In this document: positions 26,620 through 64,000 of the stretch, one piece after another | Layout of the letters: every line of letters begins with the position of its first letter | Numbering within the stretch: the stretch's first letter is position 1 | Assembly: GCA_963838995.1 (NCBI GenBank) | Contig: CAWITJ010000003.1 | Coordinates: forward strand, 250,000 to 313,999 | From: an uncultured Acidobacteriaceae bacterium | GTDB lineage: Bacteria; Acidobacteriota; Terriglobia; Terriglobales; Acidobacteriaceae | Length of the DNA: 64,000 bases | Direction: 5' to 3' | Translations under genes and position numbers: made by a program | Notes under the pieces: generated by a model | Told to the model about the DNA's origin: nothing | What the model saw: only the letters and a program-made list of their open reading frames with translations | Databases searched by the model: none

Positions 26620-29600
26620 ATGAATTGGTACAGGAACCTCCCGCAGCATTTGCTCCGTGTGCTCGCTTGCACAATCTTCCTTTTCGTCTGTGTAACCCTT
26701 GCCGCAGGACAAGGCTCGGTCACCAACGGTTCGCTTTCCGGCGTGGTGACTGACAACACGGGAGCCGTGGTTCCGGGTGCCACGATCACGATCAAGAACC
26801 CCACCACCGCCTTTTCGCAGTCGACCACCAGTGCATCCAGTGGCGAGTTTACGATCCAGCAGTTACCTCCTGGCACCTACACCGTAGCGGTCACGAAAGA
26901 AGGTTTCAAGCGTGCCGAATACAACGACGTTCAAATCAACGTCGGCACCAACCAGCAGCTCCGCTCTACGCTGGAAGTAGGACAGAACACGGAAACGGTC
27001 CAGGTGACGGGCGAGTCGGTGGCGGTGGTTGACACCGAAAAGAGCGAAGTCAGCGACGTTATCTCACAGACTCAGGTGCAACAGCTGCCTCTGAATCAAC
27101 GCAGCTTCACCTCTCTGGTGACCCAGCAGCCGGGATTGGTACAGTTGACCAATACCTCAGCTAACTCCGGCCAGACGCCTACCAACCTGGCATTCTCGCA
27201 AGGTTCTCAAATCAGCGCCAACGGTCAGAATTCGCAGTCGATGGCCTACCTGATTGACGGCGTGAACTTTGGCAACGGCGGATTCGGAGCTCCCGGCACC
27301 GCGGCCGGCGGCGACGTACCGGGTGTCGAGTCCATTCAGGAATTTCAGGTTCTTAGCGCCGATTACAGCGCGGCCTACGGCGGTTCGGCCGGCGCAGTAG
27401 TGAGTTTCGCAACCAAGAGCGGCACCAACAACTTCCACGGCAACCTGTACGAGTATCTCCGTAACGACAAGGTAGACGCAGAAAGCTATTTCGACACCGG
27501 CAAGTTCCCCTACCACCGCAACCAGTTCGGTGGCACCATCGGCGGACCGATCAAGAAAGATAAGACGTTCTTCTTCGCCAACTACGAAGGTCTGCAGCAG
27601 GCCTACACTACGACAGAAGTCGGCAACGTTCCCAGCGTCTGCGCCCGTAACGGTGGCGTGGGCGGCAGCGGCATAGGCTGTCCGGGCGGCATTCCCTTCC
27701 TGGTAACCAACAACTACCTGCCAGGCGGCCCGGTTCCGGTTCCTATCGCAGCCGGCACGCAAGCGATTTTGCCGCTGTATCCTCTGCCGAATGGACGCGA
27801 CTACGGCAACGGCATCGCTCAGTTGCTCTTCCCTGATTCGCAACCGATTAGCCAGCAGTTTGGTCTGATTCGTATCGACCAATACGTCAGCAACAAAGAC
27901 ACCATCACGGGCCGGTACTCCATCACCGACGCGTCCGGATCGAACGCTTACCAGCTGCCGACCTTCGGTTTGGTTAAGTACGACCGCCTGCAGAACTTCA
28001 TGACCAAGTGGACCCACACCTTCGGCTCCGACAAGGTCAACACCCTGAGCTTTGGCTTCAACCGCTCTTACCTGGCAACTTCGGTTTCGCCAACGGTACC
28101 CATCTCTCCCAGCCAGTACACGGGCGATCCGGCGCGGCAGGTAGTGGGAACCATTTCCGTAGGTTCGGCAACCTCCGGCAACACCAGCGGCGCTCTGTCC
28201 ACGATCGGCACTGATAACTGGGGCCCATTCGTAGCCGGCGACGACACCTACTCGGTCGTTGACGACTTCGTCTGGAGCAAGGGCAAACACACCCTGCATA
28301 TCGGCGGAGGCTGGTCATCGGTTGGTTACAACTGGTCGAAGGGCGGCCTGATTGGTGGCGGCTGGACCTTCAATAGCTTGAACGATTTGCTGGCGGGACA
28401 GGTCGGCGTGTTGATCATCCGTCAGAACAACACGGTCACGCAGTGGAACGTCACCACTCACCCCATCGACATGTACGTGGAAGACACGTGGAAAGCGCGT
28501 CGCAATCTGACCCTGACCTTGGGACTGCGTTACGGCTTCCAGGTTCCCGTACTGGAAAACAAACAGCTATTCGGAAACGTAATCAGCAACCAGGCGTCGG
28601 GCCTGACGATTGCGAAAACCCCGTACAACAACTACTCATTCAAGCAGGTCTCTCCACGGCTTGGTTTCGCGTGGGACCCCAAAGGAGACGGCAAGACCGT
28701 AGTCCGCGCCGGCGCCGGGATCTTTTACGACTTCATTCCTTTCCAGGCCGTCGCGGGCGAGCTGACCTACAACGATCCGAATCCCACCCTCAACTCGTTC
28801 TTCGGTGCGCCCGATGGCGGAGCGCCTATTCCGTGGAACCAGTCCACGCAGGTGGTGCAGCACACCAACTTCCCGGGCCTGCTGACCAGCGTCGCCGGCC
28901 CGGTGAACCCGCCCACGACCGGACAATGGAACGTGCAGTTCGCTCAGGAACTTCCCGGCAAGGTCACTATGACCCTGTCGTATGTCGGCAGCCACAGCTG
29001 GAACCTGATGGGCGGCTTTGAAGGAAACTACAACTTGCCTGGCGGCTACCTGCCGAACGGTCAACCGTATTTCATTCCTAACAGCGGCGGAGCAGCATCT
29101 GCGGCTCTTAAGGCTCAGCTGTTCAGCTTGTACTCGGTGGCTTTCAACGGCCGTTCGAACTACAACGCCGGAACTGCTGACTTTAACCGCAAATTCTCCA
29201 ACGGCTTCACCTTCGACGCCAGCTACACCTGGGCGAAGGCAATGTCGGATGTGGACACCAACAACTCCGGCGCCATCCTGTTGGGCAACGCCTCGCACTA
29301 TGAGTATCCTGCGGTGCCGATGGTGGACTGGTCCGAATCTCTGATCAGCTTCCGTAATCGTTTCGTGGCGAACATGGTGTATGACCTGCCCTTCGGCAAG
29401 AACCAGAAATACGGCGGAAACATGAAGGGGTGGGAAGACGCCATCGTCGGTGGGTGGAGCATCAACGTCCTCAACCAGGACCGCTCCGGCGCTCCGTTCT
29501 CCGTCCTGGCCGGCTTCGGCATCACGGGCGTAGGCGACAACCTGACCTTCCCGGACCGCACCAACCTGTCAACTCCTAACCCGGTCATTGGAAACGTCAA

Positions 29601-57759: not shown

Positions 57760-58111
57760 ACCAAACTCCCATTCACCAAGTAGAACTCGACGGCGACCTC
57801 TGTCTTCTCACCGGCGGTGGTTTCCCGTGGCCCGGGCTGTTTCGTCCAGCGTTGCCGGCGCTACGGATCTCCGCTGCCCCGGCTTGGTTACATCCTCTGC
57901 CTGGTTCACCTCCGCCGGTGCTCGCAAACTCAACCTGGTTGAGTCGCGTTTCACCTACGCATCGCGGCGGCAATAATCCAACCGCAAGCGATGATCGATC
58001 ATTTGGGCGCCGGGCATGGAGCGATGAAGAAGACCCGGTGCTTCACCTGAACCGTGACATCTCGCGATAAAGCAAACAAATTGTCGGTGGTCGGAGGTCG
58101 CCCCCCGGTCG

Positions 58112-58685
58112 CTAAAGTTTATCTGAGAGATCAGCGGACTGGAAGCCTCTTCGTTCAAGATCTCCTGTGTTTTCCGGTACCAGCGCGTCCTTGCCCCATA
58201 AGTAACACCTCGAACGTTGGTTATGTTTAATGTCCGCTACCAAAAAGTGCCATCCGCACTTCGTTTCGAGCCTCCAGATTTGTCTGACGCAAGACATAGC
58301 GACCAATCGGTATCTTGATTGGTGCCTTGTGTAGTGTGCGTTCTCTTACTTGTGCAGGAGCGGCCTGCGCCGCCTCCTTCGTCGCTTTCTTCTTTGGCGC
58401 CGGAGGATTGCGCGCCTGTCCCTTTACCTGGATCTCGTCGATCACTTCGCTCTGCTCGCTAGAGGTCATACTCTGAGGGACGAAGTGAATGTTCGCGCAC
58501 TTCTCCTTTATTTCGCCGCCAGTGCGAACATCGCTGCGGGTAGCATCAATCTTGCTGCCGCCTTCGCCGTTCACAGGTTGATTCTTCTTCTGCCGTGAAA
58601 TTCCACCCATGCCGCCCCGCTGCAATGGTGGACCTGTGGATCGCCCGGACAACGGAGCGCGGCCAAGCTGGCAGCACTCCGCCAT
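58112..58685 (-). CDS. hypothetical K/A/P-rich protein, possibly frameshifted near 58290
   Basis: ORF 58227..58685 (...NPPAPKKKATKEAAQAAPAQ...PIGRYVLRQ) overlaps ORF 58112..58306 (..VRQIWRLETKCGWHFLVADIKHNQ...) with a +1 offset. No domain recognised, and the start is uncertain. Confidence 0.3.
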
Positions 58686-58870
58686 CTCATGGTCACCCCC
58701 CCACTGGTTCGACGCTACCAGGAAAAATCCTAAGAGTGTGCCAATTCCCGAAATGGTCTAACTATGAGAGGCAACTAGGTGAAACCGAAAAGTTTGACCA
58801 CGTGGAGAGAACTGAGTGGTCGCCGTGCTCGCAACACGACCCTGGAAGTTAGCCCGCGCACTTCCGTCGC

Positions 58871-59755
58871 CTACCGGTTAATTCCGTACTTGTCCCTGAG
58901 AAAAGTCTGCAATGTGCCAGGTAGCGTGGCAGCCAACTCCTGCCAGGTCAGTAGGGCCAGCCTAGACCGCAGTTCCGCGCTTCGTACCGCACGAAGAACG
59001 TGATACCAAGCTTCGACCAGGTCGGCGCGTCGGCCATCGCACAACACAACAAAACGGCGCTGCCGGTGATGGGCCGCGATCACTCCCCGGATGAGTTGGT
59101 AGGAGTAGTATTTGCCGTTGGAAGAAGGAAGGTCCTCGGTTTCGAAAACCGCTTCGAAATCCGCATAACGGCAGACCAAGTCCCGCCGGGCACTCTGAAA
59201 CCCGCTTTCGGTGAGCTTCGCTTCCACAAACAGTTCGCCTACGCTCATGTCAACTTCGGTTCGATCGACGTGTCCGTTGATCAGCGGCGCATTCGGCCGA
59301 ACCCCAAACTCGGGATTCAACCCGTGCTCTATCCCCAAAAGATCGCAAACCTGCTTCCGCTTCAGCACGCCGGGATAGCAGAAAACATTCATCAGCAATG
59401 CATCGGAACTGTTAGCGCAGTCCAGTTCTCGGCGAGTCCGATCTAGGGAGCGAGCCACACGCCGGCTGGAGCTGTAGCGCTTCAGAAGTCGGCGCTTCCA
59501 CTCCGGATGAGCGCAGATGCGACGATACGATGCCGGCAGGAAGTTGCCGTGCCCACCATCGGCGTCTTGATATAGGACGCTGGGCGTTACGCCGAACGTC
59601 GATTCGTGGGCCAACCCTTCCGCAAGCAGAAGATTACGCGCGCTGATTTCCCGCCGCAGCGCCGCGGAATTCAACGTCTCTTTCGGGATTTCCCAGCCGC
59701 CCATCGAAGGCGAAGATAACACGAAACCGTCAGCGCGAGAAGAGTTCCAGCCCAA
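58871..59755 (-). CDS. PD-(D/E)XK nuclease-fold hypothetical protein
   Basis: 294 aa. The segment HVDRTEVDMSVGELFVEAKLTE fits the D...(D/E)xK restriction-endonuclease-like core. No adjacent methyltransferase. Confidence 0.6.
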   Translation of the reverse strand: MGWNSSRADGFVLSSPSMGGWEIPKETLNSAALRREISARNLLLAEGLAHESTFGVTPSVLYQDADGGHGNFLPASYRRICAHPEWKRRLLKRYSSSRRVARSLDRTRRELDCANSSDALLMNVFCYPGVLKRKQVCDLLGIEHGLNPEFGVRPNAPLINGHVDRTEVDMSVGELFVEAKLTESGFQSARRDLVCRYADFEAVFETEDLPSSNGKYYSYQLIRGVIAAHHRQRRFVVLCDGRRADLVEAWYHVLRAVRSAELRSRLALLTWQELAATLPGTLQTFLRDKYGINR

Positions 59756-59863
59756 TACTCAGACTTAGAGGTGAATCGTGTCGCCAGGTCCTGGGGCAAT
59801 CTGATGAGGCCACCGCAAGGTGGCAGCGCCCCGCCTCGTTCCACAACGTGTTAGGCACGACCG

Positions 59864-60454
59864 CTAGCTGACCGGAAGCACTCCCTGGGCACGAAAGAAG
59901 ACCAGCACGTCATCCCAGTTGTGCACGCGGTGTATGACATCGGAGACCTTCCGATTGTGCGGCGAATCGAACAGTATCTTTTCTCCCTCAAATCGCCTCA
60001 GGTGGTAGATGTTGTCGTCGATCATGTATTCGGCGCGAATGATTGACTTGTCGCCACACAGCACAATCTGTCGCCAGTCGATGAACGGGAAATTCGCGGC
60101 CAGCCAGTCATACTTCTCGCATAAGGAGTTGGGATATTCAGTCGCTGCGCTAACGATGTAGATCCGGCAGTGTTGCGCCAGCAACTCAAGCGCCGTGCGG
60201 CTCCCTTCGATCATCTTGAGGCTGGCGAAGAAACCGGGTGTGCGCGGAATTCTGCTGATGAATTCCTGGTGCTCGGTCGGCACGCACTCGCGCAATCGCT
60301 TCCCTTCCGTCGCCGGAACGTCTACCTCAACGCCGCTCCATGCTTGATAGCGGGCAAGCTGTTCGCCGAAGTAGTCGGCAATCACCTCGTCCATATCGAC
60401 GGCGACTCTGACGAGGTTGTTACCGGAAAGATCATCAAGGTCGCGTGGCATCAT
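59864..60454 (-). CDS. 5'(3')-deoxyribonucleotidase (HAD superfamily, NT5C/YorS-like)
   Basis: HAD motif I VAVDMDEVIAD and motif IV YMIDDN. AGGAG lies just upstream of the ATGATG at 60454/60451. Confidence 0.75.
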   Translation of the reverse strand: MMPRDLDDLSGNNLVRVAVDMDEVIADYFGEQLARYQAWSGVEVDVPATEGKRLRECVPTEHQEFISRIPRTPGFFASLKMIEGSRTALELLAQHCRIYIVSAATEYPNSLCEKYDWLAANFPFIDWRQIVLCGDKSIIRAEYMIDDNIYHLRRFEGEKILFDSPHNRKVSDVIHRVHNWDDVLVFFRAQGVLPVS

Positions 60455-60628
60455 GCTCCTACTATAGAGCCCCGCTCGGCTGCAGGAGCTTCCAGTCAAC
60501 GCGCGTTAGGCGAAGACCGTGGGAGTAGTGAGCGAAGTATCGAAACGCAAACCACGGAGCACTGGACGCGCTCCACTTCGATGGCCTGGAAGAAATAATG
60601 CTCTTCCTCCGGAACTTGTTGATTTGAT

Positions 60629-60673
60629 TGGTGGCGGCGGTAGGACTCGAACCTACGACCTACGGATTATGAG
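60629..60673 (-). tRNA. tRNA-Met (CAU) 3' half only: anticodon loop to CCA, 5' half absent
   Basis: The reverse complement reads CTCATAA-TCCGT-AGGTC-GTAGG-TTCGAGT-CCTAC-CGCCGCC-A-CCA. That is a perfect anticodon loop, 3' anticodon stem, variable loop, T-arm and 3' acceptor strand. The preceding bases (..tcattt) cannot form the 5' anticodon stem, D-arm or acceptor. Confidence 0.65.
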
Positions 60674-61421
60674 AAATGAAACCAATGTTGAGCCTAAAGA
60701 AAATAAAGGGCTTAGCTCGGAAGAAGACGGCAGAATCAAGCAGGATTCGCAACCCCCGCGCAAGACGAAACCGCGTTGATAGCCACAAAGCGCTATGTAA
60801 GGATTTGCATACCTTCAATCCCCGTTCCCACTTCGATTCAACAGTGCCAAGAGATTCTCTATACGTCTTGTCCGCTTTTTGTCTGCCCCTCTAGCTCGGG
60901 TTCTCACGGCAGACTCGCACAGGTTTCTGGGGCACTTGCCGGGGATAGCAAATCATCTGCTCTAACGGATGGCCGCTCGCCCAATGGGCATCCCTGGACG
61001 CTGCCGCGCTGGCCGGTACCGGTCCGGCCAGATCTCCCAGAAGCGGGCTTCCAGGGAGTCAGGGCTGCACTTCTACGACTCGGGCGTTATACGGCCAAGT
61101 GGGGGTGCCAATGCGGTTGCCGGAATGCTGGCCGACTCCCGAGGAACATATTCCATCCGGTTCAGATAGGGTGCGAGTTTGCCTGATTACAACAGTTACA
61201 GCGCAAACAGCTCCAGTCGGAGCTTCTTGTGCCAGACCGCCTGTTCACCGCTTTGAAGCGAAAGGGTACGGAGTCCTCGCTGACGCGGCATGTCCCCATC
61301 GCAGGCTGCGTCGTTTTGGCGGGTGGGGCTTCCATCCCCACCCTGGGGATCGGCTCCCGATATATCAGGCCGCACGATTTGGTTGACCAACAGGAGCAAT
61401 CGCCCCACGTCTGCTTAAATC

Positions 61422-63206
61422 TCAGTAATCGTAAAGCGGGTGTACCGCTGGAAACACCGTGTTATTCGCACAAATCGGTTTCACGTAGGCACTCACCACA
61501 CTTAATACGCCGGTGAAATCGGCAGTTGACACCATGGATAGCTTGTTTAGTGAGTCTGCGTACCCGTCGCTGTTCAGCGCCAGAAGCAGGTGCCGGACAC
61601 CCCACTGCCGCTTCACCTGATAAGCCCCTACCGGTCCGAAACGCTGGTCAATTTGGGCGGCGATCTCAGGGCTGGTTAGCTGGTCGAAATTATCAGCGTA
61701 CTCCCTGGAATAGAGGTCAATCTGCTTGTTGGCGTCTGTGCCAAGAGTGAAAATTTGGCCGCCCGCCTTCATCGCCAGCCGCTGCCCCGTTAGCTTAGCC
61801 AGACTTTCTGCGTCGACTACCTTCGCAAAATCCCCTTTCCCGATCGCTTTCAGTGAACCCTGCAAATTTCCGTAGGCGTCCTTCAGCTTTGCGGCGGCTT
61901 TTGCGATCCTGGCAGCAGCGGCTCCCATCTCTCCAGCTTTCACAGAAGTCTCGACAGCCGCGGTAGCGCCGTGTGCGGCCCCGGCTATTTCCCCGGCATA
62001 CGGAATCAGGCTTGCCGCCAGCTCAATCGGCGCAAGCACCATGTCGAGCGTTCCAGTAGCGCACTCCTTCTGGTTCATCGAACAACCCACGCCACAGTCG
62101 AATTGTTGTTGGGAGGGACAATTCTGCCAGCAAACCGGTCCCACCATATGGAAGTCAGCCTTGCAAGGTGGGTAGCAGAGCGCTCCGGTCGGGTCTTTTT
62201 GCAGACCAGGCGCGCATACGCCCATTTCAAGCGGCTCGCCCGCGCCACGACCATAGCTAGGCTTTTGACAAGAGACGCCAATGTCGTTCATGCCCGACGG
62301 ACAATCGGGAGAACAGACACAACAACCGGCGGCGTGGAAGTTAGGCTTACACTTGGGATACCACATCGCCGCACTTTGCTCGCAACCTTGAGGATTGTCT
62401 TTGTTGCATTGGTCGCCTTGCCAAATCACGTACCCCCCGCCTCTTCCATAGGAGCCTGGTTTGCCGCAGTAGCCTCCGTCATCACGGAAGTCCGCCGGAC
62501 AAACTCCCCAGCATACGGGCCCATTTCCGGCAAATCCATCTCGACATTTGGGATAACAGAGCAGGCCGTTCCTGTCGTAGCCGTCCCTGCAGGTGTAAGG
62601 TTCGCCGGCGCCGTTTCCGTAGCTTTGCCTGTAACAGTAGGGCAAATTGATAGCGGCAACTTGGGCGGCGATCCATGTCATCACGGCATTCATTTCATCC
62701 GGAGACAGTGGGGAAGCGCCCAGGTCAATCATCCCCGGCGGAGCCGACTGGTTCCCGGCGGCAACGTTGGAAGTTGAGGGGCTGGGTTGGGGATTTGCAG
62801 CGGGTTGGGATGTTTCTTGTGGCGCTTGGGCTGGGGCCGGATTTGTTCCCTGGTTGCCCGCTGCCGATCCATCTCCCTCTGCCACTTCAAGCGAGACCGG
62901 CAGATTAGAGGTGGACCCATCCGTTACCTGGATATCGGCTTCTTCGTCGGCTTGGAAACCCTGTGCCGTAAAGGTGACCGTGTAGCTCCCCACCGGAAGG
63001 TTCTGGAAAGAATACTGGCCATCACCGCTGGTTGTGACAGTGTTCTGGAGACCTGTGTCCTGATTGACGGCCTGCACCTGGACGTTGGCAACGGCTGCTC
63101 CGGATGGGTCTGCCACCGTACCCTGAATGGCGCCGCTGGGAGCTTGTGCACTCACGAAGCAGGCGAAAATCGCCATAAAAACTAATCCCAAGGTCTTGCG
63201 CATCAT
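61422..63206 (-). CDS. secreted Cys-rich repeat protein with carboxypeptidase-regulatory-like N-domain (function unknown)
   Basis: 594 aa with a signal peptide. CarboxypepD_reg-like GTVADPSGAAVANVQVQAVN...YSFQNLPVGSYTVTFTAQGF, then a P/Q/A linker. Three CYPxC(K/R)xxFxxxGxxC...CP repeats precede an Ala-rich C-terminal domain. Confidence 0.8.
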   Translation of the reverse strand: MMRKTLGLVFMAIFACFVSAQAPSGAIQGTVADPSGAAVANVQVQAVNQDTGLQNTVTTSGDGQYSFQNLPVGSYTVTFTAQGFQADEEADIQVTDGSTSNLPVSLEVAEGDGSAAGNQGTNPAPAQAPQETSQPAANPQPSPSTSNVAAGNQSAPPGMIDLGASPLSPDEMNAVMTWIAAQVAAINLPYCYRQSYGNGAGEPYTCRDGYDRNGLLCYPKCRDGFAGNGPVCWGVCPADFRDDGGYCGKPGSYGRGGGYVIWQGDQCNKDNPQGCEQSAAMWYPKCKPNFHAAGCCVCSPDCPSGMNDIGVSCQKPSYGRGAGEPLEMGVCAPGLQKDPTGALCYPPCKADFHMVGPVCWQNCPSQQQFDCGVGCSMNQKECATGTLDMVLAPIELAASLIPYAGEIAGAAHGATAAVETSVKAGEMGAAAARIAKAAAKLKDAYGNLQGSLKAIGKGDFAKVVDAESLAKLTGQRLAMKAGGQIFTLGTDANKQIDLYSREYADNFDQLTSPEIAAQIDQRFGPVGAYQVKRQWGVRHLLLALNSDGYADSLNKLSMVSTADFTGVLSVVSAYVKPICANNTVFPAVHPLYDY

Positions 63207-63388
63207 CGAAGACCGCCTTTCATGCGGGATTGCCGTTGAATTGGGTTCAGGTTCGAACTGGGGCCGGGTCAGAGAGACCTAACAAAGGAGAATTATGCCG
63301 TCCTGAAAGATCAGGAACATGAAGAGATATTTGGTTTTCGCTCAGAGCAGAGAAGTGTACCTACTTTCGTCGGGATGTCAAACAAATG

Positions 63389-63434
63389 CTGTCGCAGGTA
63401 GTGCGTCAGTTAACTGACGCACTACCCTGTCGCA
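63389..63434. repeat. 30-bp perfect palindrome flanked by 8-bp direct repeats
   Basis: GGTAGTGCGTCAGTT|AACTGACGCACTACC occupies 63397-63426 as 15+15 nt with a GTTAAC centre. It is bracketed by CTGTCGCA at 63389-63396 and CTGTCGCA at 63427-63434. Confidence 0.85.
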
Positions 63435-64000
63435 TGACTACTATTGGTTACGACGCAGTCCTGCACCGTACTAGCTTTGGCTTTCTTTTTATTCTTGGTC
63501 GTGACGGGCAACGTCATGCTGACCTGATTACAATGGGTCCTTATCCTGTGCTGGAAGTCCGCCATACATGGCAACTTACGCGTTAGCATGGCCCGGCGAA
63601 ATTCGTTCATTTTCCCTGGAACCCTCGGGTCATCAGAGCACTCTCTGCGGTGCTCGTCCTCGGCCCGTTCCAAACCCGACCCTTTTAGCTTTGACGGTGC
63701 GGAAGCAAGACAAGCAAATACTCTGACCTGTTCTGTCGGTCCGGCGATAGAACCGCTGCAGTAACACCACTCCCCGGGTAGCTGGGCGCGTTCTTGCAGT
63801 CTTCATAAAACGATGGCATATAGCGATAGTTGGCTGCGTACGGCACCGTCATGAGTAGCGAACGGAACGTGCGGTCGTTGCACGTCCCGTTTGGCGGATG
63901 CCATCCTAGTCGTCGGCCGCCGGTGTGGCCTTCGGCATGTTTTTTGGATTCAGCAGGGGAGCCGGGTTATCAGGATTTTGAAGATTAGGAATAAGGTCTG

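Follow-up and report, generated by a model that had tools for sequence, protein, structure and literature searches.

The window analysed here is a stretch of 64 kb (positions 250000–313999 of contig C3) from the genome G000, a 94%-complete assembly of 5.3 Mb. The features near its right end are listed in table 1. They centre on a 45-nt piece of a tRNA-Met(CAT) gene on the minus strand. Read along that strand, the piece consists of the anticodon loop CTCATAA with its anticodon CAT, the 3' strand of the anticodon stem (TCCGT), a variable loop of 5 nt, the T arm (GTAGG-TTCGAGT-CCTAC), the 3' strand of the acceptor stem (CGCCGCC), a single A and the terminal CCA. ARAGORN detects no tRNA gene in the 64-kb window, and the piece is therefore without a 5' half. 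Rfam gives a single weak, partial match on it, covering the T arm and the acceptor end. The original prediction, made from the letters of the window, had described a tRNA-Met 3' half running from the anticodon loop to CCA and lacking its 5' half; the architecture and the ARAGORN result both agree with this description.

Table 1. Features at the right end of the window. Positions are those of the window; C3 coordinates refer to the contig.
Feature	Position	Strand	Basis
K/A/P-rich ORF, REase-ARP nuclease and NT5C nucleotidase; flank on the chromosome side	57760..60628	-	Pfam
About 25 nt reading PPELVDLI in the int frame, on the chromosome side	60604..60628	+	71-nt repeat, 97%
Perfect direct repeat of 56 nt shared with attL (C3 349362-349417)	60619..60674	-	base-by-base extension, alignment
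Displaced 3' 45 nt of tRNA-Met(CAT), anticodon loop to CCA; attR core	60629..60673	-	sequence, second copy
Part of the island inside the window	60675..64000		repeat spacing of 38,744 bp, GC profile, Pfam
P' arm of the att site, distal island end; int frame open for 35 codons	60675..60779	+	ORF 60519-60779
Two (C)GCAAC/G repeats, candidate arm-type sites of the P' arm	60748..60764	+	spacing of about 10 bp
Gene for a CarboxypepD_reg/Cys-rich secreted protein	61422-63206	-	Pfam

The 45-mer occurs exactly twice in the 5.3 Mb of the genome. The minus strand carries both copies, at a distance of 38,744 bp: one is that of the window (C3 310628–310672), and the other (C3 349372–349416) forms the 3' portion of an intact tRNA-Met(CAT) gene of 77 nt, placed by ARAGORN at C3 c[349372–349448], to the right of the window and outside it. 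The prediction had reported no second copy in the window, had expected an intact tRNA-Met beyond it on this side and had proposed a search for the direct repeat; the search, once run, gave a second copy outside the window and on the same strand, and the gene found by ARAGORN has an identical 3' half.

Base-by-base extension of the two copies yields the perfect repeat of 56 nt, which ends 1 nt past the anticodon loop on the stem side and 10 nt past CCA. With two mismatches allowed, the repeat comes to 71 nt (97% identity) and extends about 25 nt beyond CCA. An exact duplicate of 56 nt cannot be due to chance in a genome of 5.3 Mb, and the strand exchange must fall inside it. It had been predicted that identity stops at the 5' edge of the anticodon loop. 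This is so in 10 other genomes (see below), but in G000 identity continues for 1 nt on the stem side.

The two copies enclose 38.7 kb of unique DNA (C3 310674–349361), which runs on for 35.4 kb past the end of the window. In the orientation of the tRNA, the intact gene comes first, followed by the 38.7 kb, the displaced 3' half and the flank. This is the canonical product expected of an element whose attP carries the 3' part of a tRNA. For most of this interval the GC content is 0.52–0.55, lower than the genome value of 0.59. The prediction had placed the island from 60674 onwards and had named the Cys-rich secreted protein as one of its products; GC is lower on that side, and the gene lies in the part of the island inside the window.

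An ORF for a tyrosine integrase (C3 348146–349429; PF00589, E = 8.8e-14, with SAM-like domains) abuts the intact tRNA gene, and an integrase had been expected there, beyond the window. Its scores with the Xer and integron models of NCBIfam are far under their cut-offs, and it has an extra N-terminal region before the SAM-like core-binding domain. Directly upstream, overlapping the start of int, is an excisionase-type (xis) gene coding for 100 aa (C3 347844–348146; HTH_17, TIGR01764). A gene of the HTH_17 excisionase family is kept upstream of int in 22 related loci.

The fragment is very probably the attR scar of a 38.7-kb integrative island in tRNA-Met(CAT). According to the mechanism that we propose, the tyrosine integrase would recombine the attP of the island, which would carry the tRNA sequence from the anticodon loop onwards, up to its 3' end, with an elongator-type tRNA-Met(CAT) gene; we infer that strand exchange took place in the anticodon loop. 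Because such an attP carries the 3' part of the tRNA, integration would rebuild an intact tRNA at attL, composed of the chromosomal 5' half and the 3' half of the island, and would displace the previous 3' half to the opposite end of the island, where it would now be the fragment in the window. The xis–int module would then sit against the intact tRNA, and the int gene of the excised form would read on into positions 60675–60779.

The repeat, the intact tRNA, the integrase and the GC shift all agree with an att-type scar at an island boundary, as originally proposed. A decayed tRNA pseudogene, left by local duplication or deletion with no mobile element involved, would also lack a 5' half and might also have an accessory-looking flank on its left. 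Such an origin is, however, hard to reconcile with 56 nt that are 100% identical to the intact gene, in direct orientation, with an integrase and an excisionase gene lying against that gene and with the same truncation point in 10 other genomes that carry related integrases; we give it practically no weight.

Three tRNA genes with the anticodon CAT are present in the genome. One has a GGG/CCC anticodon stem, which we take to be the mark of the initiator type, and another has a C4, C5 acceptor pattern, presumably that of tRNA-Ile2. The island-bearing tRNA-Met(CAT) looks like the elongator, and we assume it to be the sole gene of this kind in the 94%-complete assembly. ARAGORN also lists some odd tRNAs in this genome: one with a 4-nt anticodon (tggg), a tRNA-Ser(act), and a tRNA-Ile(tat) and a tRNA-Cys(gca) of 87–88 nt (loci C9:152006–152100, C9:63564–63640, C9:301378–301464 and C4:36915–37002). 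These may be false positives or unusual genes.

The same geometry is found in relatives. A scan for the integrase (one genome per species; one distant match left out of the 38) gave 38 related integrases, mostly of 60–77% identity and nearly all from Acidobacteriaceae or Terriglobales MAGs. In 30 of the 38, a tRNA-Met(CAT) lies on the opposite strand, 200–230 nt after the end of the N-terminal match, as in G000. The tRNA was used as a query against 15 of these genomes, and displaced fragments starting at tRNA nt 28–33 were found in most. Where attL and attR are on one contig, their spacings are 14.7, 23.7, 24.8, 28.2, 28.6 and 30.6 kb. Alignment of attL with attR in 10 other genomes shows that identity ends in each at the 5' edge of this loop, with ...GGATTATGAG (anticodon loop); the end ...TTATGAG is common to G000 (plus 1 nt) and these 10 genomes. 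The other end of the identity is the 3' end of the tRNA in most of the 10.

Among the 24 other species genomes of the same genus that were searched, three contain the integrase family, and one of them (G015) has it at the same locus. The flank to the right of the island, with an oprB-like porin and mfd, is conserved across the genus. In two genomes of the genus, G012 and G004, the orthologous site beside the porin/mfd flank contains a tRNA-Met of 100% identity, with no such integrase and no fragment within 18 kb of it. The fragment is therefore not kept in all relatives, and the patchy presence within the genus, together with G012 and G004, argues for mobility. Neither the 40 relatives compared nor the 5 closest genomes show synteny of the left flank. 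An empty site bounded by both flanks of G000 was not found, the DNA downstream of the tRNA in G012 and G004 being unlike the left flank of G000.

Searches of metagenome contigs for the attB or attR of this strain by exact pattern gave no match. A composite pattern (int 3' end, core and start of P'), with which free attP sites and tandem arrays look alike, gave no match in viral contigs; in the metagenome it matched 19 contigs, all of them attR sites with a short relic int 3' end and no catalytic domain upstream. Neither search yielded a free attP. One IMG/VR contig has a related int at its very end and is uninformative. Genome G044 has two tRNA-Met genes at one hotspot: a second full tRNA-Met, 87% identical (C12:26558–26634), is located 2.4 kb beyond its attR fragment (29073–29117).

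In 15 relatives with an intact int, the ORF continues after the block with the catalytic Tyr and a variable linker, and reads antisense through the 3' half of the tRNA. It follows that the attP core, with the crossover region, is inside the ORF, and the strand opposite the target tRNA codes for about 20 residues of the integrase. The C-terminus in these 15 is ...DLIGGGG(R/W)TRT.DLRIMRPSL, and the stop is located in 15 of 15 cases 57 nt into the tRNA, as the complement of D-loop nt 20–22. The frame and stop of the G000 int are those of the relatives, and the integrated form ends in ...RIMRPSL*.

At attR, both in G000 and at 11 further sites, the same int frame stays open for 35–45 codons of the distal island end. 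The consensus of this distal tail is roughly S.P..DSK.LQQ..SA.SGKV.QNPQPPRN; in G000 it reads RNETNVEPKENKGLSSEEDGRIKQDSQPPRKTKPR* (window positions 60675–60779). Other genomes have homologues of the segment at 11 attR sites, and it is conserved in 19 metagenome contigs as well. Judging from the junctions, integration would change the 3' end of int, replacing a tail of 35–45 codons by 4 codons.

In pairwise comparisons of the tail, the three codon positions differ equally often (0.354/0.332/0.358); the corresponding values for the catalytic domain are about 0.2/0.13/0.58. The equality argues against a conserved protein function of the swapped tail. A conserved peptide, considered as an explanation of the tail, is rejected as the main reading in view of these values and of the co-varying GCAAC repeats. 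The P arm has three copies of the unit (C)GCAAC, inside the int linker, and the P' arm has two, with a spacing of about 10 bp; on the two arms, the copies are no further than about 80 nt and about 135 nt from the core. G042 and G054 have GCAAAC in all five places, that is, the two arms vary together. The conservation of the P' tail thus looks to be at the level of DNA, and the repeats are probably arm-type sites bound by the N-terminal domain of the integrase. Since DNA-level repeats explain the conserved segment, the ‘gene-less’ 750 bp beside the scar is the P' arm of the att site.

By analogy with Mx8, the exchange of the tail might act as an integration-dependent switch, the integrated and excised forms of Int of the Terriglobales tRNA-Met islands differing in activity or stability. 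We regard this as unlikely; if true, the switch would be a directionality control like that of Mx8.

The int frame of G000 changes twice, at the G runs C3 349145–349154 and 349332–349343, and the GHSSIQVTVDTYGHL block with the catalytic Tyr is out of frame owing to the two changes. The island also codes for PDC-M61A and PDC-M61B, each split into two ORFs, and for hsdM and hsdR, which are split as well. These observations, together with the many relatives that retain int remnants alone beside the tRNA, are what one would expect if the island were a dead, immobilized relic in which int, hsdM, hsdR, the PDC-M61A/B genes and the RHS genes are truly broken. Yet the two frame shifts in int compensate each other, and the core gene mfd of the same assembly is frameshifted too (C3 ~353,770); its orthologues in several relatives are also split into more than one ORF. 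Since core genes are also affected, indel errors in homopolymers are at least as likely as real decay of the island. A dead relic is a real possibility, slightly less likely than not. The mfd (TRCF) homologue to the right of the island changes frame relative to its orthologues at C3 ~353,765–353,777; the mfd splits suggest assembly-level indel errors in this group of MAGs.

The tRNA-Met site may have a longer history of occupation. On the chromosome side of the scar, about 25 nt within the 71-nt repeat read PPELVDLI, which resembles the C-terminus of the integrase and is probably a relic of the int 3' end of an earlier occupant. The attR of G054 and the 19 metagenome contigs keep longer relics of this kind. 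Many of the matches in the genome scan are only C-terminal int remnants beside tRNA-Met, which fits repeated use of the site with decay of the older elements. The left flank is accessory-looking and without synteny in relatives, and its NT5C, REase-ARP and K/A/P-rich genes could be what is left of the cargo of an older island.

This tRNA-Met might have been occupied first by another element of the family, which decayed to a few int codons and some cargo before the present island arrived. The scar would then be a boundary inside a larger accessory region and not the edge of the core chromosome; this adds to the attR interpretation and does not replace it. The relics at the attR of G054 and in the 19 metagenome contigs favour such a history. 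In G000, however, no second or degenerate tRNA fragment that would mark a tandem array was found further left on the contig, the GC content of the left flank (0.565–0.58) is nearer the genome value, and G012 and G004, which have no integrase, have a similar sequence of ~20 nt after the tRNA, possibly the native 3' flank of the gene. For the G000 site we regard an earlier occupation as possible but less likely than not. The 19 JGI metagenome contigs show a relic int 3' end, a tRNA-Met 3' fragment and then the conserved P' arm, and they speak for successive elements having occupied tRNA-Met in Acidobacteriota of peat and soil.

Islands in tRNA genes (tDNA islands) with an anticodon-centred attP (site A) were reportedly described by Williams in 2002. 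In the site A class the block of identity extends from the anticodon loop to the 3' end of the tRNA, and the G000 island agrees with this. Islands of the Islander type have a full-length tRNA at one end and a displaced 3' fragment in direct orientation at the other, which is the arrangement in G000. Islander looks for a fragment that is not internal to another tRNA gene, and for a PF00589 integrase, not of the Xer or integron type, inside or overlapping the island; the G000 fragment lies outside any other tRNA gene, and the integrase is of this kind, with its frame broken twice. The length of the G000 island is within the 2–200 kb range of Islander and close to the 39.9-kb peak in island size (Hudson et al. 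2015, PMC4383910). Displaced fragments and anticodon-centred attP sites of tDNA islands have been published (PMC4383910, PMC6070905), and none of the papers found names a Terriglobales or Acidobacteriota host clade or this integrase subfamily. There is no essential difference between the G000 island and Islander-type (site A) islands: as a tDNA island it is ordinary, and the anticodon-loop class to which it belongs is a common one. The extension of int across attP is a less common detail.

In the intP/attP system of the myxophage Mx8, attP is within the int coding sequence, and int acquires a different 3' end when the phage integrates into a tRNA gene, likewise the arrangement here. The target of Mx8 is the 3' end of tRNA-Asp genes, and the C-terminal segment that it loses is much longer. 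The target in G000 is in contrast the anticodon loop of tRNA-Met, and the swapped tail is short, 35–45 codons being replaced by 4; moreover, the tail in this family is without coding-level constraint, and no phage genes are found among the island ORFs scanned. An attP of the lambda type has a core and arm-type sites, with Xis as directionality factor. The G000 island has repeats in both arms and xis beside int; it differs from lambda in that the P arm is inside the int ORF, and the arm sites here are candidates proposed from their repeat pattern. Integrases that extend across attP are documented for Mx8 (Tojo et al. 1996 and Magrini et al. 1999, as summarized in PMC6070905 and PMC4383910) and for SSV (PMC4383910, PMC6070905), and Islander allows for them. 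In the SSV-type integrases of archaea the recombination site is inside the int ORF (PMC7253208, PMC8371274), as it is here; the SSV gene is split into two non-functional parts, whereas in the present family a short tail after the catalytic Tyr would be exchanged.

A xis–int–attP module specific for tRNA-Met, in which the core and the candidate arm sites have been located, is thus widespread among Terriglobales of soil. To our knowledge, no mobile-element biology has been worked out in the little-studied phylum Acidobacteriota. For Acidobacteria, in which genetic manipulation is difficult, the module might be of use as a tool for site-specific integration.

Among about 40 scanned ORFs of the island, no Pfam families for virion structure, packaging or lysis were detected, which speaks against a prophage. 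PHROGs, run on 10 unknown ORFs, gave one weak ParB-like match. Neither relaxase nor coupling protein nor type IV secretion genes were detected by Pfam among the island ORFs of at least 90 aa, and the identity of an ICE was rejected on this ground. The element is best called an integrative genomic (defence/accessory) island, neither prophage nor ICE.

The cargo includes a serine resolvase, a HAD hydrolase and a sulfatase. A type I restriction–modification (R-M) system is encoded at C3 331514–337570, with hsdR, hsdM, two hsdS genes and a YgjP-like protein. With one boundary of the 38.7-kb accessory region now fixed, the genes for the Cys-rich secreted protein, the sulfatase, the R-M system and PDC-M61 are marked as horizontally acquired cargo. 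The PDC-M61 A and B genes, candidates for anti-phage defence, adjoin the type I R-M system (C3 337776–340981). At C3 321359–326329, a C39-peptidase-like protein is followed by three RHS-repeat/YD-shell fragments, apparently a polymorphic-toxin locus that is broken and forms part of the island's cargo.
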